From the NCBI GenBank assembly GCA_000092065.1, contig CP000590.1: DNA of 64,000 nt, one strand, 5' to 3'. The stretch comes from Ostreococcus lucimarinus (Eukaryota). The position numbers were made by a program, and so were the translations under genes. How positions within the stretch are numbered: position 1 is the stretch's first letter; the number at the start of each line of letters is the position of its first letter. The notes beneath the pieces were generated by a model. It did not search any database. It was not told the DNA's origin and saw only the letters and a list, made by a program, of their open reading frames with translations. Shown piece after piece: positions 1 to 51,129 of the stretch.

Positions 1-5
1 TTTCA

Positions 6-1169
6 ATGTTCGTCCTGATTTCACAGATAGATACGGTGCTTCTACCGCGCCTTGGCGAGCGTTGCCGCACGGCAGACTTTACATACAACGCGGGCAGCGC
101 ATTTGAGCTGCGAGATGGGCGCGTTCGACGATATGAGCGTTGTTTAGCACCGCCGTGTTCCTACACTTTACCAGGTGGGAATTATTTTCTCGAATTAATT
201 TTTAAAACATTTCATTTGCTCCTACACGCGCGCTTTTTGCTGACCTTTGATTTTTCTACCGATCAAACAGGACTTTACGGTCGCGCTGGTGTGCGTATTT
301 CTGTAGAAGCTTTCGTGACGTACGACGCGTTACCAATTTGCGACTCGTGGTGCGTATTAATTTCTTGGTGGTGGTGTGTTCCGTGCACCGGAGTAGTAGC
401 TCAAACTATAGCCACGATCGGTGGATGTGCGCCCTATCAATCTCAGTGCGGTGGTTCCCTCGTTGTTTTCGTCACGGACGCGGGTGAAGTGCGATTTGGC
501 GTGCAAACGTTCATGGACTCCTACAATAATTTACCGCTCAGTTTGGGCGGTGGTTTGCGCATCGTCGACGTCTCGGTGCCAGGCAAGGGTTTTTTTGCGC
601 GCGACGGGATCGCGTTCAAAGTGCTCTGCACGTACGATGGCGTTTCGAATACGACAAAGATTTACATCAATGATAAGTTAAGGGGTATAGCAGATCCGTT
701 CGTCATGGGTCAGTTTTTGTTTCGCCCGTTCCACAACGTATCCGGGAACTTGCACGAGAAGATCACGATTGGCAACAGCATGCACTCGGCTGCTTCCGCC
801 ACGAACACTTTAACTGACTTTCAAGGTATGCACGAGACGAGTAATGGAACTCCAGATACACGAGATGGCACATTACCGGCAATTGGTCAATTTGCGACCT
901 ATGACGCCTCGCCGCTCTTCGACGGCTCCCCAACAACGCAATATTTCTTGCCGTGGAGGGGCACGATTCACGAGGTGTACGTGTATTTTGACAACGGACT
1001 ATATCAAGGGATTAGATATCCTTCAACTTGCGTGCACTTAGAGCCCGTCGAACCCGAAGCCGATGATTTTAGTGATTTTGTGACTCGTCGCCGCCGTCTC
1101 CACGAGACGCCGGTTTCCAGAGTGCGCGTTGGCCCTCGGCGGCGTAGTGACATTCGGGCTACTAGCTAG
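6..1169 (+). CDS. Hypothetical protein, possible concanavalin-A-like/LamG-type beta-sandwich domain (C-terminal pattern KITIGNS...FQG...IHEVYVYFDNG); lower GC than the rest of the window; may be 5' truncated at the window edge
   Basis: 387-aa ORF starting 5 nt from the window edge. No recognisable catalytic motif. The LamG-like F-x-G-x-I-x-x-V-x-V-Y motif is weak. Codon usage differs from neighbouring GC-rich genes. Confidence 0.3.
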   Translation: MFVLISQIDTVLLPRLGERCRTADFTYNAGSAFELRDGRVRRYERCLAPPCSYTLPGGNYFLELIFKTFHLLLHARFLLTFDFSTDQTGLYGRAGVRISVEAFVTYDALPICDSWCVLISWWWCVPCTGVVAQTIATIGGCAPYQSQCGGSLVVFVTDAGEVRFGVQTFMDSYNNLPLSLGGGLRIVDVSVPGKGFFARDGIAFKVLCTYDGVSNTTKIYINDKLRGIADPFVMGQFLFRPFHNVSGNLHEKITIGNSMHSAASATNTLTDFQGMHETSNGTPDTRDGTLPAIGQFATYDASPLFDGSPTTQYFLPWRGTIHEVYVYFDNGLYQGIRYPSTCVHLEPVEPEADDFSDFVTRRRRLHETPVSRVRVGPRRRSDIRATS

Positions 1170-1187
1170 AGGTCGAAACTACACAAA

Positions 1188-4100
1188 CTATAAGACTAAT
1201 GATTTGAGAATGTTTGCCGCGAAAGTCGCTTCCCTACTTTCCTTCCTGTCACCATCAAAGCAACACTCAGGCACGATGGCAGAAACAGGGGGAAGACTGA
1301 CTCGCTGCGATCCAGCCTCGGGCGCGACACTCCAGACTGGAGTGGGAATGTCAACCAAAAGACAGCCACGAGCCGCGGTTGCCATCGAGTATAGCCAAAC
1401 TTCATCACCGTTGACTTTTGCGAAAGCACGCGTTGCGTTCGCTGCGACGAGTCGCAAAGCCTCGTCGTCCTCCATGGCAAGCTTGGCCACGACGGGCACT
1501 GCCGCCCCGAGCAAATCGTGTAGCGCTTGCTTTGATTTTTCGCACGATGCGATGGATTCTAAAGTATCGCATATTTTGATACGGATGCGTCTCGTAAGCT
1601 CTGATGAAATCTCCGACTCAGCGATGAAGCTTGCATCGACGGTATCTGCCAGCGTAAGAAGTTCGAGCGATCGGTGTCGTTTGTCAACGTGACAAACACC
1701 TTGTTGCAAAACGCGCGACAGTATAGGCCATAGATCCGAGTTCATGCGTTTGGCGATGAAATCGCCACCACTTGTCGAAGCCATGGTTCGAAGTAACGAC
1801 AAACTCGCTTCGTACGCTTCAGCTTGAATCGAAATTTGAAATCGGTCGCTGAGCGATGATACCGCATGAGGCCAGATGTTATGGATGTGTGGCAGTACAC
1901 GGGCATCTTTGTAGAGGGAAGCCACATCAAAAGGCGTGGAATTCCTGCCTCCGTAAGCTTTGAGTACTTTTAAGACGTATTTATCATGCGTCAATGCAGA
2001 TTCTGCTGCTGAAAGGCTCTCAAGAGCGAACGAGCAAGCCGTTGCAGATAAACTTCGAACGCCGGCGTAAGGCGACTCCAGCAGCGCGCTGACCGATCTC
2101 AGCAAGTCTATCGCACAACCGACCATGGCCTGAAGGCGACGAACGCGCTCCAAGGACTGAGCCCGGGTGGTTTCAATGTCCTGCGAAAGCACCGAACGCA
2201 TTTCTTCGACAAAGACCTCCGTCAGCTCGTTCTCGTCTTCGCTGTCTGGCTCCTCCGGGTGATACTTTTGTATGCTAGCCACAACACCTCGCGAGTGTGT
2301 CTCTATCTCTCGCACCTCGAGCAACACTGCTGAACAATATTCATTCATTACGAGCAGAAAATCTTCGGAGTGCTCCGCATTTTTTTCTCTATTGACGATC
2401 AAAAATGTGCGCAACGCCAATCGAATCGGCTCTGCGAGAAGCTTCACCATGCTCTTTGCCGCATCAGTCCTCCTCAGAATAGCCGCAAAGAGTCGAGGAG
2501 CGCGTGAGTGCTTATCTAAATGCCGCATTTGTCGAGAAAGCATATCCACAACGTAGTCTGCGTTCGCAACGACAAGACTCGCTATTGGTGAATCATCGGT
2601 TGAATTGTATTCTCCGCTTTGAGCCAACTTGAGCAAAACAAGCGCTGCGGTGTCTCGCACCTCAAGCGATTCTTCACCGAGCTTATCGAGTAATGGACAA
2701 AGTACGTTTGTCAAAAATGCACTTGTTCGTATGTGATCTTTGCCGAGTCCTTCTCCGATGATCCCCATGCCTTCCATCAACACGCGTAGTAAAAGAGCGT
2801 TGTCCGGTTCCGCAGCGTCAAGATTCCACACCTCGCTGCATACGTACTCTTCGACGATCAAACTGGAGACGCGAACAAGATATTCTCTTTCGACTGCTGA
2901 TTCAGTGATGGCGCCAAAAAGCATTTCATTGAGCGCTATCAGGTGGGCTGCCGCGTTTCTTTGCCATGCACCCGCGGTGCCCAATGCGTCGAGCTCTGCA
3001 TCATTTCTCAATGTGCCGAGAAAGTATTGCGCCATTGGCACAAAATACGTTTCCAGTGAAGATTCGTTTGTGATTGATGCCGCTCGACCGAGTAATCTTA
3101 GCATTTTTGCAAAACTTTTGTACATGGATGCGTCGGGGAAGTACTGCAACCTAGGAGGCGCCCGTGGCAACCCTTGCGCCGTCGACACGCTGGCTTCGGT
3201 CAAATCAATTAAACTTATCATCTGCGCGCTGCCATCTCGTCGTTGAGAAGAAAATGTTTCGATGAGCAGACACTCCGCAATGGTAGAGCACAAATGTTCT
3301 CTCGAGCTCGGACGGGCGAATAGCGTTTCTTTCAAGCGCCGAGCGCCGGCGAATTCCAGAGCGATGAGCAAGCGCTGAAGATGCCCGACAGCCTTATCGG
3401 AAGAATCACGCAGCGTGTCTGCTATGTTGGACAAATCGTCTTTTATGATTGCCTCCAAGTCTGCTCGGACGACGTAGCCGAGGTTGTCAAGAGATCTCAA
3501 ATCTTCCAATATGGGCGTCGAGACTTGTGCCCAACTATCTCCCGCGAGCGTGAGTAAGCACTCCATCATTCTACGCCTCGTCTTCGCGCCCAGAACTTTT
3601 GCACAATGTTTTAAGACGCTACTCGCCATTTTTCCAGTCGCAAGTCTCACGGTCGCGCGCTGATGACTCGCTAAGGGTGGAATTGTCGCTAAGAGCGCCG
3701 CTTCAACGCGAGAGCTCGCGAGAGAGAGCCATTCTTTATCTCGAACCACCTTGAGATCTTTACCAGCGTTCGCAGGGGATACGGACGCGTTTTCGTCGTT
3801 CATATCCCTCGACATATTTTTTGCGTTCGATTCCAGCTGATCGTCTATCGATCGAGCGACGAGAGAACCCAGTGCGCTTTGCAACGCATTTGCACCTTCG
3901 CCCTCTGCGGAATCGCCGAGCTCTGATTCGTACAACGAGTCGTTCAGAACGCACGACAGAATGGACGCCATCGAACTCAGGGCAAACTCGACGCCATCTG
4001 CGCCAGTTCCTCCCGGCCCAGCGCCAACGTTTGGGCGAACACCACTCGCCGCGACTAACGCCTTGGTCAACCCAGACACCGTGCCCGGAAGGAAAAACGC

Positions 4101-4845
4101 GAGAGCATCGGCGTCGGCGACAAATCGAATCAAGCAATCGAGCGTGTTCAACGCACTCGAGCGCAGAAGCTTACTCCCTTGCGACCCCGCGCTTGTTTCT
4201 TCGTGCGAAATCGCAAGGAGCGTAGAAATCGTGAACCCGAGCATAGGTGCGATCTCGGAGGCGCCTCGAAATGCTGCTTGCACCTCTGTGGACGCCGCCG
4301 CGCAAAACGCGCGCGTCGCCTCCAAGACTTCCATGCATACCGTCTCGTACTCGCCTCGTCGCGGTAACGACAAGACACCGACAATCCCACTGAATATTCT
4401 CAATCCCATTTCTCGCGTACAGTCTTCCCCGCTTTTCGTCATCGCCTCTCCCGTCGTTCGCAGCGCGCTCTCGAGCAACCGCCGCCGGCGCGCCACATCC
4501 TTCGGCGCCGTCGTCGCTTCAACATCACTCGGCGCGCTCGACTCCTCCATCATTCGCGACACGTTCGCTCGAAGTATCTCCACGCACGGTATCGCGCACA
4601 GTTCCAGCGCGCGTCGCTCGCTCGGTGCTTCCGCGTGCGTCTTCCGTAGGCGCTCCACGGCGTCTCGCGCCTCGTCCGCGAACCGCGCCTCCGCGCGTCC
4701 TCGCGCCGCGCTCACCATCACCGCTCGACTGGCGTCGATGAGCGCATCGGTCGCGCCCGTCGTCGCCGTCGTCGTCGTCGTCGCGTCCCGTTCGTTCGTC
4801 GCTTCCGTCGACATCTCCGCGAAACGAGTTTCGCGCGGCGAATCC
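1188..4845 (-). CDS. Large alpha-helical HEAT/ARM-repeat protein (~1219 aa) of unknown function. The ORF-track N-terminal extension to 5384 is an arginine/leucine low-complexity artefact that overlaps the next gene's start region.
   Basis: Continuous 1398-aa ORF. The body is rich in amphipathic leucine helices (LLxxL, repeated ~40-aa helical pairs). First plausible ATG at 4845 (MDSPRETRF...). No catalytic motif seen. Confidence 0.5.
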
Positions 4846-5026
4846 ATCGAAATCTCTCGAATCAATCCAATCGACCCAATCGCTCGCGCGTTCGCGCGTT
4901 CGCGATCGGTGTCCGGCGCGCGCGCGATCGTCGACTCGAGTTCGTCGGTGCGTTCGCGCGCGTCATCGTCCGTCGCGTCCGTCGCGTTGTGCGACGCGCG
5001 TCGTCCGCAGTCGTCCTCGCGCGCGC

Positions 5027-5097
5027 AGTCAGTCAGTCGGTTCGGTCGTTCGGTCGTTCGGTCGTTCGTTCGGTCGTTCGTTCGTTCGTTCGTTCGG
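5027..5097. repeat. (GTCGTTCG)n-like microsatellite in the divergent promoter/5' region between the HEAT-repeat gene and the DBP2-like helicase
   Basis: Direct reading: cagtcagtcggttcggtcgttcggtcgttcggtcgttcgttcggtcgttcgttcgttcgttcgttcgg. Confidence 0.8.
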
Positions 5098-5150
5098 CGT
5101 CCCCGGTCCCGCCGCCGCCGCCGCGGACGACGCACAACTCGACGACGACG

Positions 5151-6743
5151 ATGGGGAAAGAGGGCAAGAGGGAGAAGAAGAAGGAGAAGAAGGAGAAGAA
5201 GGAGAAGAAGGAGAAGAAGGGCAAGCGCGAGCGCGACGCGAACCGCGACGGCGGCGCGCGGGAGTCGTCGAAACCCACCACGGCGACGAAAAAGGCAAAG
5301 ACGACGCGCGATGACGAGGGACAGACGTTCGGGATGGCGGCGGTGGGCGATCGATCGATCGCACAGTCCGGTGATACGTTTCAACGCGTGTTTTACGACG
5401 CCCCGGCGTCGTTGAAGTCGATGTCGGCGAGCGAGGTGCAGGCGGCGCGAGACGCGTTGGCGGTGACGCAGGTGGACGGTTTGTCGACGGATTTAGCGCC
5501 GGTGTCTTCATTCGCAGATGCGGGGTTTTCGAAGGAGCTGCTGCGAGTGACGGCACAGTTTAAGACGCCGTCACCGATTCAAGCGCAATCTTGGCCGATC
5601 ATCATGAGCGGGCACGACATGGTGGGGATCGCGGCGACGGGTTCCGGGAAGACGCTCGCGTTTGGGATGCCGGCGCTGACGCAGATTCACTCGCAACCAC
5701 CCTGCAAGCCCGGTCAGCCGATCTGTTTAGTGCTCGCACCGACGCGAGAATTGGCGCAACAAACGGCCAAGGTGTTTGACGACGCCGGCGAGGCTTCTGG
5801 GGTGAGGTGCGTATGCGTGTACGGGGGCGCTCCCAAGTACGAACAAAAGGCACAGATGAAGGCGGGCGGCGGAGCCGCGGTCATCGTCGCGACACCGGGT
5901 CGTCTTCGAGATTTCATGGAAGAGGGCGTGATTAAACTTGATAGAGTGACGATGTTAGTGCTCGATGAGGCCGATCGCATGCTGGATTTGGGTTTTGAGC
6001 CTGAAATTCGCGCCATCGCCGGCGCCACGCGCGCCGATCGACAAACCGTGATGTTTTCTGCGACGTGGCCTCAGAGTGTGCAAAGCCTCGCTTCGGAGTT
6101 TATGTGCAATCCTATCAAGGTTCGCATCGGTGCCGAAGGTTTGAAAGCTTCTCAAAGCATAACTCAAATCGTCGAAGTCGTCGAGCCGCAGGACAAGGAT
6201 AGACATTTGGCGCGAGTCATGAAGCAATATTTGGGCAAAGGCAAAGAGGTGCCTCGAACCCTCATTTTCGGTTTGTACAAGAAAGAGTGCGCAAATTTGC
6301 ACCAAAGACTTAGCCGTGAATGGCCAGCAGTGTGTATTCACGGCGACATGTCTCAGCATGATCGTGAAAAGTCGGTCGATGCGTTCAAGAAAGGCACGTC
6401 TCGAATCTTGATTGCCACCGACGTCGCCGCCCGAGGTCTCGACATTAAAGAGGTGGAGTATGTCATCAATTATACGTTTCCTCTCACCACGGAGGACTAT
6501 GTTCACAGAATCGGTCGTACCGGTCGCGCTGGTGCAACGGGCTTGGCTCACACATTTTTTACATTGCACGACAAGGCGAGAGCGGGCGAACTCGTCAACG
6601 TGTTACGAAAAGCTGGCGCAGAAGTTCCAGAAGAACTCACTAAGTTCGGCACGCACGTGAAGAAGAAAGAAAGTAAGTTGTATGGCGCGCATTTCAAGGA
6701 CGTGGACATGTCGGTGAAGGCTACGAAGATCACGTTCGATTAA
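5151..6743 (+). CDS. ATP-dependent DEAD-box RNA helicase, DBP2/DDX5 (p68)-like, with a K/E-rich N-terminus
   Basis: Q motif (FKTPSPIQAQSWP), motif [12 protein letters not shown], Ia [31 protein letters not shown] (WP is typical of the DDX5/DBP2 subfamily), VI HRIGRTGRAG. First ATG of the ORF-track frame at 5151 (MGKEGKREKKK...). Confidence 0.85.
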   Translation: MGKEGKREKKKEKKEKKEKKEKKGKRERDANRDGGARESSKPTTATKKAKTTRDDEGQTFGMAAVGDRSIAQSGDTFQRVFYDAPASLKSMSASEVQAARDALAVTQVDGLSTDLAPVSSFADAGFSKELLRVTAQFKTPSPIQAQSWPIIMSGHDMVGIAATGSGKTLAFGMPALTQIHSQPPCKPGQPICLVLAPTRELAQQTAKVFDDAGEASGVRCVCVYGGAPKYEQKAQMKAGGGAAVIVATPGRLRDFMEEGVIKLDRVTMLVLDEADRMLDLGFEPEIRAIAGATRADRQTVMFSATWPQSVQSLASEFMCNPIKVRIGAEGLKASQSITQIVEVVEPQDKDRHLARVMKQYLGKGKEVPRTLIFGLYKKECANLHQRLSREWPAVCIHGDMSQHDREKSVDAFKKGTSRILIATDVAARGLDIKEVEYVINYTFPLTTEDYVHRIGRTGRAGATGLAHTFFTLHDKARAGELVNVLRKAGAEVPEELTKFGTHVKKKESKLYGAHFKDVDMSVKATKITFD

Positions 6744-6777
6744 ATCTCTAGTGTGAACGCTACGTAATACGGGTATG

Positions 6778-8886
6778 CTATTGTTGTATGAGTGGTCGAA
6801 ACCCTCCATTAACTTCTATCAACGAATCCTTTCCTAGCAAATCTCTAATCACTTTTTCTGGATCTCTCGATCCCCCGTGTCGCAATAATTTGTCACGAAG
6901 ACTCTCCGCCGCGCCCGCCGCGAGGCTGTCGCCCTCAAAGTAACGCTTCCAAATGTCATCGGCCAGGACATCGGCGTACAGGTACGAGTAATATGTCGCT
7001 CCGTAGCCGACAAAGTGACCAAATCTAAGCTCCCAATTCGTACCGGACACAGGTTTGAACATACTGTGCTCGTTTTGAATCGTTGCAGCGAGATCAGCGA
7101 TCGATTTTGACGATAGTTCGGATGTTTGGTTGTGAAGCTCGAGATCGGTCAACGCGAAGACAACCTGTTGTTGCGACTCAATCGAACGAAATATATTCCT
7201 CGACTTGCGCAACGCGGAAATCATGGCGTCAGGTATGGGCTCGTGCGTCATGTAGTGTTTTCCAAGAAGCTTCAAAGCACTTGGATCCCACGCAAAGTGC
7301 TCGAATAAATGACTCGGAACCTCAACGATGTCCATTGGCGCTCGAGTTCCAGACAAATGTTGGAATTCTGTATCCGAAAGCACAGAGTGCATGGCGTGAC
7401 CAAACTCGTGTAAAAACGTTTCCACTTCTCCGTGACTTAACAAAGATCGCCCTTTGCCCGATACGGGAGGGAAGTTACACACGAGAGCGACCGATGGGTG
7501 CTGCCGTTCTGTGGGCGACACCATGCGGCTACACCGAATGACAAAGTGTGCGGCGTGATTAAACTTTCCCGGCCTCGGGAGCAAGTCCAAATAAATCGTC
7601 CCTCGCATGTCTCCATCACGAGTCTTCACCACTAGTTTCTTCAGGTCATTCGTCCATCCTTCGCCAGGTGCCAACTCCTGCAGTTCGATGCGTAAACCGA
7701 GAACTCTCGCAAGAAGCTCGCCGATGCCGACGATGACGCCTTCCAAAGGGAAATACTCCGCAATCGCGGCCGAATTGAATTCGCACTCGTGTCCACGCGC
7801 TTGTGCCATCGCGTAAGTTTTGTCCCACACCGATATGTGTTTGCCGTGATTATACTTTTCAATGACGGCGTACTCGTCCTTTGCGCTCTGCCGAAGGACA
7901 TCCGATAGACTCAACAAGAACTCGCGAACGGCGTCGGGTGATCGAGCAAGCAACGGTGCGGTGGCATATTTGGCATATGTTTCGAATCCTAGAGAATGCG
8001 CGACACCAGCACGAGAAGATATGAGGTTGGCCAAAACGTCTTTGTTTGGCTCGGGTCCAGTGTTCGCCGCTATGAAGACGTCTCGGCGCGCGTTTGAATC
8101 CCTCAGGTGTCTCAACATCAACGACGAGTTCGATGAATCTACCAACCCCGTCCATAGCTTACCATCATTACTTCGAAACTGGTCTCGCACTGTCTTCGGG
8201 AGCGAACTCAGCGTGCTCTTGTCGAGCGATACTCTGCTCGCTAACTCTGGGCGCAACAAATTCCGTTGAAACTCCATCCCGAGCTCAAGACTTCGCGACA
8301 AGCTCCCGTCGAAATCCCGTCGCCTCGCCGGGTCGAGATGAATACCTCCGCGTTCAAAATCTTCTTGCAAAGTAAGCGCCACGCGCGCGCCCTCGTCGCT
8401 CAAATTCTTTGCGTCCCTCTCTCGCGCGCTCCGCAACGCCTCGTACAAGTCGCCGTCGGCGTTCAAGCTTGCAACGTAATCTTGTAGTCGCACGTACGCC
8501 TTCTCCGCCGCGATGACGTATTCGCGCGAAGGATGCGTGTGACGACACACCTCCGCGACGTCCACGACTCGACAGACCTCATCAGATATCTCATCCAACG
8601 CCCCGACGCTCGCCGCGCTCGGCGCCGCCGCCTTGAGCGCGCGCGCCATCGCCTCGCACTTCGATATCGTCTCTCGCGCCAAGCGATCGAAATCTTCGGG
8701 CGCGCGCAAACCTTGAAGATCGTATAACCCCTGAGCGCTCGCCGTCGCCGTCGATCGCGCGCGATGCTCCGTCCACGGTCGACGAAACCCGTCGTGCGCG
8801 CCCAACGACCCATCGCCGTGTGACACATACTCGACCGTCCACGCGCGCGCGCGCCGCGTGAGACCGGTCCACGCGCGCCGCACCAT
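6778..8886 (-). CDS. MIP: Mitochondrial intermediate peptidase (M3 family zinc metallopeptidase, MIP/Oct1-like)
   Basis: HEXXH zinc site FLHEFGHAMHSVL followed by QHLSGTRAPMDIVEVPSHLFEHFAWD, which closely matches the MIP consensus (HEMGHAMHS...QHVTGTRC.TDFAEVPS). Arg-rich presequence from the first ATG at 8886; the ORF-track start at 8901 is a GTG. Confidence 0.75.
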   Translation of the reverse strand: MVRRAWTGLTRRARAWTVEYVSHGDGSLGAHDGFRRPWTEHRARSTATASAQGLYDLQGLRAPEDFDRLARETISKCEAMARALKAAAPSAASVGALDEISDEVCRVVDVAEVCRHTHPSREYVIAAEKAYVRLQDYVASLNADGDLYEALRSARERDAKNLSDEGARVALTLQEDFERGGIHLDPARRRDFDGSLSRSLELGMEFQRNLLRPELASRVSLDKSTLSSLPKTVRDQFRSNDGKLWTGLVDSSNSSLMLRHLRDSNARRDVFIAANTGPEPNKDVLANLISSRAGVAHSLGFETYAKYATAPLLARSPDAVREFLLSLSDVLRQSAKDEYAVIEKYNHGKHISVWDKTYAMAQARGHECEFNSAAIAEYFPLEGVIVGIGELLARVLGLRIELQELAPGEGWTNDLKKLVVKTRDGDMRGTIYLDLLPRPGKFNHAAHFVIRCSRMVSPTERQHPSVALVCNFPPVSGKGRSLLSHGEVETFLHEFGHAMHSVLSDTEFQHLSGTRAPMDIVEVPSHLFEHFAWDPSALKLLGKHYMTHEPIPDAMISALRKSRNIFRSIESQQQVVFALTDLELHNQTSELSSKSIADLAATIQNEHSMFKPVSGTNWELRFGHFVGYGATYYSYLYADVLADDIWKRYFEGDSLAAGAAESLRDKLLRHGGSRDPEKVIRDLLGKDSLIEVNGGFRPLIQQ

Positions 8887-47621: not shown

Positions 47622-48679
47622 ATGGGGAAGCGCGCGGCGCCCGACGCGACGACGGGCGACGCGGAGAGCCGACGGGTCGAGCGCGAGGCGAAGTGTCGCG
47701 GGACGGTCGAGGCGCTGAACGCGCAGTTCGCGGCGTGGATCGCGCGACGCGCGATCGAATCGCCGATCGTGAGTTGGCGTCGAGGGTGCGAGGATTACTT
47801 GAAACATCTCGATCGCGTCAAGGTGCGCGAACGCCCGGGCGATGCGATGCGCGCGCGCGAGTTTTTGCTCGCGACGAGGCGACGCGCGACGCGACGAGGC
47901 GACGCGTCGACGCGAACGTGAGGACTGAATGAATGAGACGACGACGCGCGCAGGTTGATTTCGGCGACGTGTTGGAACGCGTCGAGGACGAGAACGACGG
48001 AGAGACGACGAAGGCGACGACGACGGCGAGCGATGGGCGCGTGGACGCGAAGGGGAGCGTGAATCCGTTCGGGGGGGGCGCGGTGGCGGCGGTGCCGGCG
48101 GCGGGATCGATTTTTGGGAGTTTGCCGACGGCGCCGGGATCGACGTTTGGCGCGCCGTTCGGCGGCGGCGGGGGGCTGTTCGGCGGTGGGACGGCGCCGG
48201 GCGCGGGGACGGCGGCGGACGACGAGGACGAGGATGAGCCCGCGCGACCGAGCTCGCCGTCGTATCAGGCCAACGAGGCGGTGGAGGACGAGAAAGAGGT
48301 GGTGCTCTTGCGCGTCGGCAAGGTGAAATTTCACACGAAGAAGGACGCCGGGGATAAAAATTGGGCCGATCGCGGGGTGAATAGCTTTGAGTTTAGACGC
48401 GAAAAGGCGCCGAGCGAGGGCGACGTGAAGCGCTGTAGGTTGCTGATGCGAAACACCATCGGTAAAGCGGTGTTAAACGCGGGTTTGTACCCGAAAATGT
48501 CCTCGCAATTGACTGAAAAGAAGATGAAGGATGGGAGCGCCGTTCAAAACGGCTTGATCGCCACCGTGTTCAACGCCGAGGAAGAAAACCAAAAAGTCAT
48601 GGTTTATTTACGTTTCGGCAAGGAGAGCGACGCGAAAGAGTTACACAAGCTCATCTCCGAAAACGTGGCGACGCTTTAG
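47622..48679 (+). CDS. NUP50: Nucleoporin NUP50/Nup2-like with C-terminal Ran-binding domain. Two exons: 47622..47822 and 47944..48679, with a 121-bp intron.
   Basis: N-terminal MGKRAAPDATTGD...LNAQFAAWIARRAIESPIVSWRRGCEDYLKHL parallels NUP50 MAKR...LNCSVRDWIVKHV..NPLCDLTPIFKDYEKYL. C-terminal RanBD: KEVVLLRVGKVKFHTKK...CRLLMRNTIGKAVLNAGLYPKMS...KVMVYLRFGKESDAKELHKLISE. Donor AAG|gtgcgc, acceptor gcgcag|GTT. Confidence 0.65.
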
Positions 48680-48755: not shown

Positions 48756-49619
48756 TTAATCCCCCTCTCGGCGCCCACCGCCCCAACTCGTGAGCTCCTC
48801 GACCTCCTCCCACGCGATCGCGCACGCCTCTCTCGTCGCCCCGCTCGCGCACAGTTCGATCGCGCGCGCCACCGCCGCCTCCACCGCGCTCCGCCTCGCC
48901 GCGCTCGGATCCGCCTCGCCGCTCGTCGCCGCGTCTCCGTCCTCCTCTCTCGCCATCAACCGTCCGCGCGCCTCGAGCGTGCCCTCCGCCACCGTGCACT
49001 CCCCCAACCCTCGACACGGCAGCGATCCCATGAGCGGATCCTTCGCTAATCGTTCGCGCATCTCCTTCGCCTTGGCCCGTTTCGCCGCCTCCTCCGCCTT
49101 CGTCGTCTTCCCGCGCGCGTTCAAATCCAAATCCTCCCCCTCTCCGCGCGTTCGCACCCCCGCTCGAGACGCCGCGTCTCGCACCTCCGCCACCTCTTCC
49201 CACGCCGTCACGCAGCTCGCGCTCGCCGTCCCCTCTTCCTCGCACGACGCCTTCGCGCGTTCCACGGCTTCGCGTAAAATCATCTCCAGTCGTCCCCTCC
49301 GCGCGTCGTCCCTCGCCGTCGTCGCCGCGTCCTCGTCCGCTCGCGTCGCGCCGTACAGCGTCTCCAGCGCCACCGCCGCGATCTTCGCCTGCGCCGCGCT
49401 CAGCTCGACGCGCCGCTCGACGCGCGCGCCGTCGTCGTCGTCGCGGGACGTCGCGTCGGCTTTGAAATCGTCGAAATCATCGTCTTCGCGCGCGCCTCGC
49501 GCTCGACCCGTCGCGCGTCGCGCTCGACGGCTCGCGCGCGACGCGCGGGAAGGGCGCGCGAACGACCTCGAGCGCTGATTCGGCGCCCGCACCGCCGCGG
49601 GCGTCGCGAGACGCGTCAT
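48756..49619 (-). CDS. CP12-domain protein with two CP12-like C-terminal motifs (Calvin-cycle GAPDH/PRK regulator family), chloroplast transit peptide
   Basis: Two copies of Cx(7-9)C-AWEEV(E/A)E(L/V): SCEEEGTASASCVTAWEEVAEV and CASGATREACAIAWEEVEELTS. Start at the ATG 49619 (MTRLATPAAVRAP...). The ORF-track extension to 50264 is poly-Arg low complexity. Confidence 0.5.
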   Translation of the reverse strand: MTRLATPAAVRAPNQRSRSFARPSRASRASRRARRATGRARGAREDDDFDDFKADATSRDDDDGARVERRVELSAAQAKIAAVALETLYGATRADEDAATTARDDARRGRLEMILREAVERAKASCEEEGTASASCVTAWEEVAEVRDAASRAGVRTRGEGEDLDLNARGKTTKAEEAAKRAKAKEMRERLAKDPLMGSLPCRGLGECTVAEGTLEARGRLMAREEDGDAATSGEADPSAARRSAVEAAVARAIELCASGATREACAIAWEEVEELTSWGGGRREGD

Positions 49620-50062
49620 GAGACGCGGCCGGTGCGGCGCGGAGTGCCGCACATCGCCGCGCCGCGACGCGCATGCCGTGCGCGCACTGCGAGCGCATCG
49701 CGCGCGTCGCGGACGACGCGCTCCGCGACGCCGCGCGCGCGCTGCGAGCGACGACGCGCGAGCGCGACGCGCTGGCGCGAGAGCTCGCGCGCGCGCGCGA
49801 GACGGTGACGGAGACGCAGCGCGCGGCGAACGACGCGCTCGTCGCCGCGCTCGAGGCGGCGACGAGGCGCGGAGGCGCGGAGGCGTTCGCGCGCGATCGG
49901 GGGAGCGAGACGAAGGCGCGCGGCGTTCGGGCGGTGTTCGACGACGTCGGGCCGGTGCCGACGACGCCGACGGGACGCGACGGGCGACGGAACGAGTAGA
50001 GAGGGAACGGGCGTCGTCGATGCGATGCGTCGCGTCGGTAGCGTGTATTATTATTATTAGAT

Positions 50063-51073
50063 TTATCGCGGTGCGCCGTCGGTGGACGTCGGCGCGTCGT
50101 CGTCGTCGTCGGCGGTCGGCGACGCGTCTTCGTCTTCGTCTTCGTCTTCGTCTTCGTCTCGCGCGCGCTCGGCGTCTTTGATTTTCGCGTCCGCCTCGTT
50201 CGATCGATTCGCGATTTTCACCACCTTGCGCGCGGGCACGACGGCTTCTATGGCTTCGCCCCAATCGCCGCGCTCGAGAAACGACGTCAAGACGTCCGCC
50301 GTTTGGTTCACGGTGAGCACGGGCGCGCCGCGCGTCTCGAGAAACTCGCCGATCGGCAACCGCGCGTGTTCGACGCCCAATTCCCGAGCCTTGCGCAGCG
50401 TCAGCCCTTTGTGTCGATTACGATCGATGAACCCACCGATGACGTACGTCTTCCCCGCCTCTATCTCGCGCAGTTCGCGCTCGCTATCGGCGGTGAGATA
50501 CACGAGCGACTTCGCCGTCGTCTCGCTCTCCGCCGCCGTCTCCCTCAACGTCTTCCCCAACCGCACGACGTGCCAATTCTCCCACCCCGCGTTCATCCTT
50601 CCCATCTGTTCCTCGAACGCTTCGCTCATTCGCGTGAAGCTCATCTTAAACGGCGCCGTCGTCTTACAATTCCTCTCGTACGCCGCGCGCAACTGTTTCA
50701 TCAAGCTCCCCCACCGCTCGCGTTCCATCGTCGTCGTCAGATCCTCGTCGCAATCGATCGTCAATCCGTACGCCGACGAGAGCTGCGCCCGTCGCCTTTC
50801 CTTCCTCTCCGCCGTCTCGCGTCGTCGCGCCTCGATCCTCGCGCCGCGCTCGACGAAAAACGCGTCCCGCGCCTCGCTCGACATCGCGTTCACTTTGGAG
50901 TGAAACGCCGCCTTGGTCGACGCCGCGACGTCGGCTTTGCGCCTCTTCGCCTCGGCGCGCTTCGCGAGCTTGGCGTCGCATCGTCGCTGTCGCTTGAGCC
51001 GCTTTTTCATCGCGCGCTTGCTCTCGGCGCGCCGGACGACGTCGCCATCGTCGCCGTCGTCGCGGGTCGCCAT
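50063..51073 (-). CDS. TRM10: tRNA (guanine/adenine-9-N1)-methyltransferase TRM10/TRMT10 (SPOUT class)
   Basis: LTIDCDEDLT...SLVYLTADSERELREIEAGKTYVIGGFIDRNRHKGLTLRKARELGVEHARLPI...PVLTVNQTADVL matches the TRM10 SPOUT core. Basic N-terminus from the ATG at 51073. Confidence 0.7.
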   Translation of the reverse strand: MATRDDGDDGDVVRRAESKRAMKKRLKRQRRCDAKLAKRAEAKRRKADVAASTKAAFHSKVNAMSSEARDAFFVERGARIEARRRETAERKERRRAQLSSAYGLTIDCDEDLTTTMERERWGSLMKQLRAAYERNCKTTAPFKMSFTRMSEAFEEQMGRMNAGWENWHVVRLGKTLRETAAESETTAKSLVYLTADSERELREIEAGKTYVIGGFIDRNRHKGLTLRKARELGVEHARLPIGEFLETRGAPVLTVNQTADVLTSFLERGDWGEAIEAVVPARKVVKIANRSNEADAKIKDAERARDEDEDEDEDEDASPTADDDDDAPTSTDGAPR

Positions 51074-51129
51074 GACGCGCGCGCCGCGCTCTATCACCGT
51101 CGTTTTCGCTCTACATCCGTCGGCGGACG

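Follow-up and report, generated by a model that had tools for sequence, protein, structure and literature searches.

On the minus strand of Ostreococcus lucimarinus contig CP000590.1 (assembly GCA_000092065.1), at positions 48756-49619 of the 64,000-nucleotide stretch analysed here (the window), lies a complete, single-exon gene for a CP12-like protein. Translation of this interval gave 287 amino acids followed by a stop codon, in agreement with the polypeptide of about 288 residues proposed in an initial annotation of the locus. The DNA of the coding region was found to be 100% identical to contigs of O. lucimarinus CCE9901 (SRR847307), and the encoded protein is identical to a 287 amino acid product (P0001) for which public contigs already carry a gene call. 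In a mechanically generated list of open reading frames the same frame starts at a TTG codon (position 50264) and is 502 amino acids long; this version had been regarded as inflated, and rightly so, as the additional upstream part is Arg-rich filler and both the gene callers and the orthologues begin at the ATG at 49619. The extension also overlaps a conserved plus-strand gene of 108 amino acids and the 3' end of a TRM10-type gene. The coordinates of all features are given in Table 1.

The 108 amino acid ORF and the CP12-like gene are transcribed divergently, their start codons lying only 53 bp apart; the ORF is 85% identical in a sister genome and resembles an Ala/Arg-rich coiled coil, while no Pfam family could be assigned to it (DUF745 was reached at E 0.022 only). 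On the other side a gene for a RanBP1-domain protein is convergent with the CP12-like gene (76 bp between the stop codons). The product of the TRM10-type tRNA (guanine-1) methyltransferase gene carries a long acidic DEDEDED tail. The order RanBP1, CP12-like, small ORF, TRM10, HSP90 and TFIIS was found to be kept in a related genome. The GC content is 54% over positions 1-8000 of the window and 58-64% elsewhere in the window.

Many long spurious ORFs arise on both strands here from the GC-rich Ostreococcus DNA, and the CP12-like frame could in principle be another such chance ORF or a decaying pseudogene. This was ruled out by conservation and the probability that remains for it is negligible: the domain architecture and six cysteines are common to 22 close and approximately 30 distant relatives, and complete orthologue transcripts are present in MMETSP. 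In comparison with the nearest orthologue, dN/dS was approximately 1.07 over the N-terminal ~66 residues (the leader and an acidic stretch) and 0.43 over the remainder, the mature part, although the latter value is based on only 30 substitutions and is weak taken alone. The ORF is thus confirmed as a real gene.

Table 1. Location of the CP12-like gene, its parts and its neighbours. Nucleotide positions are those of the window; residues are those of the 287 amino acid protein.
Feature	Residues	Positions	Strand	Basis or sequence
RanBP1-domain protein gene		47933-48679	+	Pfam, 28.2 bits
CP12-like coding sequence, complete, single exon	1-287	48756..49619	-	287 codons plus stop, by translation
Stop codon		48756-48758	-	
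Module 2, second CP12 N-terminal-type hairpin	237-281	48777..48911	-	hhalign, phmmer, AlphaFold
Module 2, AWEEVEEL		48792-48815	-	
Module 2, Cys266	266	48822-48824	-	
Module 2, Cys257	257	48849-48851	-	
Central Cys loop	194-219	48963..49040	-	Invariance in orthologues; DPLMGSLPCRGLGECTVAEGTLEARG
Central loop, Cys208	208	48996-48998	-	
Central loop, Cys202	202	49014-49016	-	
Charged linker, predicted helix at 174-192	159-193	49041..49145	-	AlphaFold
Module 1, CP12 N-terminal-type hairpin	105-158	49146..49307	-	hhalign, phmmer, AlphaFold
Module 1, AWEEVAEV		49182-49205	-	
Module 1, Cys136	136	49212-49214	-	
Module 1, Cys126	126	49242-49244	-	
Amphipathic helix	72-90	49350..49406	-	Conserved, Mamiellophyceae only; ELSAAQAKIAAVALETLYG
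Presumed plastid transit peptide	1-44	49488..49619	-	Composition: 14 Arg, 11 Ala, no Asp or Glu
Start codon (ATG)		49617-49619	-	
False upstream extension of the 502 amino acid ORF, outside the gene		49620..50264	-	Arg-rich filler
108 amino acid ORF		49673-49999	+	Called on public contigs
TRM10-type tRNA (guanine-1) methyltransferase gene		50063-51097	-	Pfam, 85 bits

The protein contains two repeated motifs, as had been noted from its sequence: SCEEEGTASASCVTAWEEVAEV at residues 125-146 and CASGATREACAIAWEEVEELTS at residues 257-278. Both had been described as having Cx8C spacing, which is correct for the second cysteine pair (C257/C266), while the first (C126/C136) is spaced Cx9C. The proposed membership of the CP12 family was borne out by Pfam, in which the CP12 family (PF02672) matched the protein at 40.4 bits (gathering cut-off 22.7; E 5.3e-10) in two separate stretches, with no other family matching at E <= 1. 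The resemblance goes far beyond chance. All 15 relatives in an alignment of diverse sequences also matched PF02672 (best E 2e-17) and no other family, and both modules were found to be kept in the orthologues.

The modules were compared with a profile of canonical CP12 constructed from 121 angiosperm sequences and covering the 78-residue mature protein (the Arabidopsis query used was 100% identical to its UniRef entry). Module 1 aligned to positions 2-53 of this profile (hhalign, E 4.4e-14) and module 2 to positions 2-49 (E 1.2e-12), and in a profile comparison the modules aligned to one another at E 7e-10 with their cysteines in register. A phmmer search of the PDB gave the same placement, with residues 110-160 matching residues 5-60 of Arabidopsis CP12-2 (6kez_M, 3qv1) and residues 237-281 matching residues 3-48 of 6kez_M and residues 5-49 of Thermosynechococcus elongatus CP12 (6gfo). 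No alignment of either module to the C-terminal part of CP12 was found, whether in the solved CP12s or in the canonical profile. The core motif reads AWEEVEEL in module 2 and is relaxed to AWEEVAEV in module 1. Across the 15 diverse relatives, Cys126 and Cys136 of module 1 are invariant, as are C257, C266, A269, W270 and V273 of module 2. When a profile of the full family was searched against the PDB the top matches were designed helical repeat proteins; these were dismissed as compositional because they involve short Ala/Glu-rich helices and have per-domain E-values >10.

The initial annotation had taken the unit of cysteine pair and AWD_VEEL motif to be the C-terminal clamp by which CP12 holds GAPDH, and had suggested that such a dual-clamp variant might stand in for the PRK-binding N-terminal loop. 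Neither proposal agrees with the alignments: both modules align to the N-terminal half of CP12, and the PRK-binding head has therefore been duplicated rather than replaced. The N-terminal cysteine pair, for which a check had been recommended, is present twice and in register with that of the solved CP12s. The protein is almost certainly a relative of CP12 with two N-terminal-type heads and without the canonical GAPDH clamp.

The structure was predicted with AlphaFold in two runs, one using 22 close orthologues and the other the 15 diverse relatives, and the results agreed. Module 1 was predicted as a long first helix extending to residue 129, a turn at 130-133 and a second helix at 134-152 (pLDDT 95-97), and module 2 as helices at 238-258 and 263-277/281 (pLDDT 90-96). 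In both, the cysteine pair straddles the turn at the apex of the hairpin. The leader, linker and central loop were predicted with low confidence; the overall pTM was ~0.3 (0.32), and the modules are therefore best pictured as beads on a string. When the model was compared with the PDB using Foldseek, the only high-probability matches were CP12 N-domains (6ghl_F, 6gfo_F and those of CBS-CP12, 5nvd/5nmu), the best being 6ghl_F at 0.6 A rmsd over 43 columns. The motif is small, and no significant Foldseek E-value against the PDB was obtained for the whole model.

Between the modules lie a charged linker, which differs in sequence and length among the 15 aligned relatives, and a central Cys loop, in which invariance among the 22 orthologues is higher than anywhere else in the protein. 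In the diverse alignment L196, P201, C202 and C208 of this loop do not vary, and G213 and T214 hardly do. Its motif takes the form DPL..PCx4-5C..GTL, with a cysteine spacing of 4-5 residues among relatives and of 5 in O. lucimarinus; there is no proline between C202 and C208, and TVAEGTLEARG follows. The loop was predicted at pLDDT 54-60. The central region showed no significant match to the C-terminus of canonical CP12 in a profile comparison (E 0.14) and no match at E <= 10 to any PDB sequence. It was also considered as a third N-type module, which was rejected (E 0.34 against module 1 and 0.1 against module 2).

The canonical C-terminal CxxxPxxxxC, with its central proline and free Y-D tail, is missing from the protein, which terminates in GGGRREGD. 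None of the Cys-pair loops in any of the 15 aligned relatives has the canonical central proline, and, the central loop being internal, there is no free Y-D tail. The order of the parts (hairpin, linker, DPL, Cys pair) is nevertheless collinear with that of a whole CP12 (sDPLEEYCKDNPETNEC), and a permissive profile alignment starting in module 1 extended across DPL..C..C as far as position 74 of the 78 of Arabidopsis CP12-2. The central Cys loop is thus possibly a remnant of the C-terminal loop of CP12, the argument for its homology to the GAPDH-binding loop being one of collinearity only.

The N-terminal 44 residues are poorly conserved in both alignments (22 orthologues and 15 diverse relatives) and have a pLDDT <50; their composition fits a transit peptide, and the protein is presumed on that basis to be targeted to the plastid. 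An additional amphipathic helix at residues 72-90, predicted as helical at pLDDT ~90, has I80, A81, A82, A84 and L85 invariant in the 22 orthologues and is missing from the Chloropicon-type relatives in the 15-sequence alignment. This helix (AQAKIAAVALETLY) was merged with the first helix of module 1 into one long helix in the AlphaFold model made with the diverse alignment. It could serve for dimerisation, as the coiled coil does in diatom CP12.

A word-indexed search identified 22 proteins at 46-100% identity which align end to end, 21 of them with a precomputed Pfam CP12 hit. When 1.84 billion representative proteins were scanned with an HMM, only 54 matched at E <= 0.001, so that the family is small. 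The whole architecture (module 1, DPL..PC..C..GT(L/F), module 2) is kept in a dozen distant matches and overall is common to approximately 50 relatives from the Mamiellophyceae and Chloropicophyceae, with exceptions lacking the central cysteines. Named relatives include those of Mamiellaceae sp. RCC2288 (EukProt label Mantoniella beaufortii) and Chloropicon maureeniae CCMP2111 (Chloropicophyceae), and at a guess one further relative is Bathycoccus-like, as judged by a low-complexity insert. The 15-sequence diverse alignment, whose members are 25-54% identical to the query, shows six invariant cysteines; exactly six is the total in most members, and a few have one or two extra, apparently in their leaders. 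The Trp and the acidic residues of the motif are kept in module 2 of all 15 and in module 1 of most.

Several distant relatives, namely P0093/P0140, P0124 and P0136-P0138, depart from this pattern through lineage-specific decay. In P0093 the cysteine pair of module 1 is kept, and the Trp and acidic motif are lost (CVDANEDARAI). P0124 and P0136-P0138 retain DPL..P…G(T/S)L and have no central cysteines. Since module 2 stays canonical in all of these, it is suggested to be the indispensable head. A public variant of the O. lucimarinus protein, P0098 (120 amino acids), is without residues ~86-251 and is left with a single head; its junction falls exactly at the AAVA common to the 72-90 helix and the first helix of module 2 (…AQAKIAAVA joined to RAIELCAS…), and either a mis-assembly or a deletion between repeats might account for it. 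The matches to the family profile include two other double-headed types of CP12 protein. P0128 (193 amino acids) has two canonical-looking N hairpins, ends in DPLDSFRN and has no C-terminal Cys pair. P0122 (194 amino acids) resembles a head-to-tail fusion of two land-plant CP12 units, which may be an artefact of the gene model. There may have been more than one duplication of the CP12 head.

CP12 is a switch protein of the Calvin cycle. Its N-terminal hairpin consists of two antiparallel helices with a disulfide at the apex and AWDA(V/L)EEL on the second helix. This hairpin plugs the active site of PRK through its AWD_VEEL patch (PMC6800369), and a separate C-terminal CxxxPxxxxC loop with a free tail binds GAPDH (PMC6800369, PMC9406205). 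On their own CP12 and PRK do not make a stable binary complex; it is avidity that keeps the ternary complex together (PMC6800369).

Our preferred reading, to which we assign a probability of roughly 50%, is that the Ostreococcus protein is a redox-switched, two-headed binder and inhibitor of PRK which does not need GAPDH as an anchor. In a dark, oxidising stroma a disulfide would close each hairpin, whose acidic face with the Trp would then meet the active-site cleft of PRK in the manner of canonical CP12. With two heads per chain, intramolecular avidity could be achieved either by chelating both active sites of a PRK dimer or by cross-linking dimers. The result would be a GAPDH-independent redox inhibitor of PRK in cells where GAPDH regulates itself via the tail of GAPB, and in the light reduction by thioredoxin would free PRK. 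The central Cys loop might contribute a third redox sensor or a residual contact with GAPDH.

Some features of the sequences speak against binding to PRK. In T. elongatus CP12, Glu14 contacts Lys54 of PRK (PMC6800369); at the equivalent position, five residues before the first Cys, both modules have Arg in 7 of the 15 sequences (O. lucimarinus and the closer Mamiellophyceae). The motif of module 1 is relaxed: the EE pair begins with Ala, Ser or Gly instead of Glu, and the Trp is gone altogether in P0093. The same charge reversal favours a different view, in which this member of the CP12 family has been recruited elsewhere, as a redox-sensitive scaffold, a chaperone or a metal binder whose partner is neither PRK nor GAPDH, in line with proposals for CBS-CP12 and further non-canonical CP12-like proteins. 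The central loop and the 72-90 helix, which are family-specific and have no CP12 counterpart, would be in keeping with such a task, as would the wider roles of CP12-like proteins stressed in the literature (PMC3906501, PMC6142219) and the coexistence of the protein with canonical CP12 in Chloropicon. As Chloropicon has both the two-headed protein and a reported canonical CP12, the former is there a paralogue, maybe with a separate job, and not a replacement. Recruitment to another partner is nevertheless considered unlikely: selection has maintained the Trp and acidic motif that contacts PRK, in module 2 of all relatives and in module 1 of most, and Pfam found no further domain that would hint at a different partner.

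It is about equally doubtful that the protein still operates as a ternary-complex CP12, with the central loop binding GAPDH (A4 or A2B2) and one GAPDH site linked to two PRK sites, which would make it a more elaborate version of the GAPDH-CP12-PRK dark complex. The collinearity with whole CP12 and the permissive alignment described above are in its favour, and the central motif, being the most invariant stretch, clearly does something. Against this, the central region alone matched neither the CP12 C-terminus significantly nor any PDB entry, its cysteines are 4-5 residues apart instead of 8, the canonical proline is found in no Cys-pair loop of the 15 aligned relatives, and P0124 and P0136-P0138 dispense with the central cysteines. 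Far less probable again is the model put forward in the initial annotation, of two C-terminal clamps bridging two GAPDH tetramers; the two repeated Cys-pair motifs are the only point in its support, and it is contradicted by the alignment of both modules to the N-terminal half of CP12 and by the lack of a CxxxPxxxxC loop and of a Y-D tail in both.

The Mamiellophyceae are very abundant marine algae. In papers from 2014 to 2026 Ostreococcus and the Mamiellophyceae are treated as the example of a photosynthetic lineage without CP12 (PMC3906501, PMC9406205, PMC13491260): CP12 is given as 'not present' in O. tauri and O. lucimarinus (PMC9406205), and a survey of July 2026 states that the Mamiellophyceae 'retain GAPB but lack CP12' (PMC13491260). 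BLAST hits entered that survey only if they had the central motif together with both cysteine pairs (PMC13491260), a filter which the Ostreococcus two-headed protein fails. It is also reported there that GAPB shows no interaction with PRK and that Chloropicon keeps GAPA, GAPB and CP12 (PMC13491260). Since GAPB does not bind PRK, the regulatory link between PRK and GAPDH that CP12 mediates is unaccounted for in the Mamiellophyceae. Models of independent CP12 loss and of regulation by GAPB only have been built on the absence of CP12 (PMC3906501, PMC9406205, PMC13491260). No description of this protein was found in the open literature searched on tandem or double CP12 and on CP12 in these taxa. 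The domain itself is already detected in databases, and the novelty lies in the interpretation of the protein.

The gene described here is a concrete, clonable candidate for filling this gap in the Mamiellophyceae, and it extends the CP12 family of green algae to a tandem architecture. The gene also makes it possible to ask, as a natural experiment, if the avidity otherwise supplied by GAPDH can be replaced by two CP12 heads per chain. We would go further only tentatively, and at somewhat less than even odds, in suggesting that CP12 has been rebuilt in the Mamiellophyceae rather than lost, an old prasinophyte paralogue, found in Chloropicophyceae too, having doubled its PRK-binding head, lost the tail for GAPDH and so become a self-sufficient, bivalent, three-disulfide redox clamp for PRK that works beside the self-regulating GAPB form of GAPDH. 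If this were true, the two halves of CP12 function would be split between two proteins, and the switching off of PRK in the dark would be explained in algae listed as being without CP12.

With canonical CP12 (Arabidopsis CP12-2, 6kez/3qv1; Thermosynechococcus, 6gfo/6gve) the Ostreococcus protein shares PF02672, the hairpin with cysteines at its apex and the acidic AWD_VEEL motif, together with a conditionally disordered, beads-on-a-string organisation; the plastid location of canonical CP12 may be shared as well. It differs in having two PRK-binding hairpins rather than one and in its length of 287 amino acids (~240 after the presumed transit peptide) compared with ~80 mature residues. Where canonical CP12 has the GAPDH-inserting CxxxPxxxxC and Y-D tail, the Ostreococcus protein has an internal Cx4-5C followed by GT(L/F), and its extra helix at 72-90 has no counterpart in canonical CP12.

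N-modules outside the usual N+C arrangement are also known from cyanobacterial CBS-CP12 (5nmu/5nvd) and from CP12 variants with the N-terminal Cys pair only (PMC6142219, PMC3906501). The hairpins superpose at 0.6 A (Foldseek on the predicted model), and CBS-CP12 lowers PRK activity without a GAPDH-CP12-PRK ternary complex (PMC6142219). In contrast to CBS-CP12, the Ostreococcus protein has no CBS domain by Pfam, is eukaryotic and nuclear-encoded, and combines tandem hairpins with a central Cys loop, and it shows no sign of AMP sensing or hexamer formation.

The C-terminal extension of GAPB, the mode of GAPDH regulation reported for Ostreococcus, and the CP12-like tail of ADK3 are likewise partial derivatives of CP12 that carry one half of its function. 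They have the C-terminal, GAPDH-binding CxxxPxxxxC part only, whereas the Ostreococcus protein has N-terminal-type heads only, and neither an enzyme domain nor a CxxxPxxxxC tail of the GAPB/ADK3 type was found in it (Pfam, motif inspection). Finally, the CP12 of the diatom Thalassiosira pseudonana (PMC7992989) is a dimeric coiled coil with one AWD_VEEL motif and two cysteines (the C-terminal pair), compared with the two motifs and three cysteine pairs of the Ostreococcus protein.
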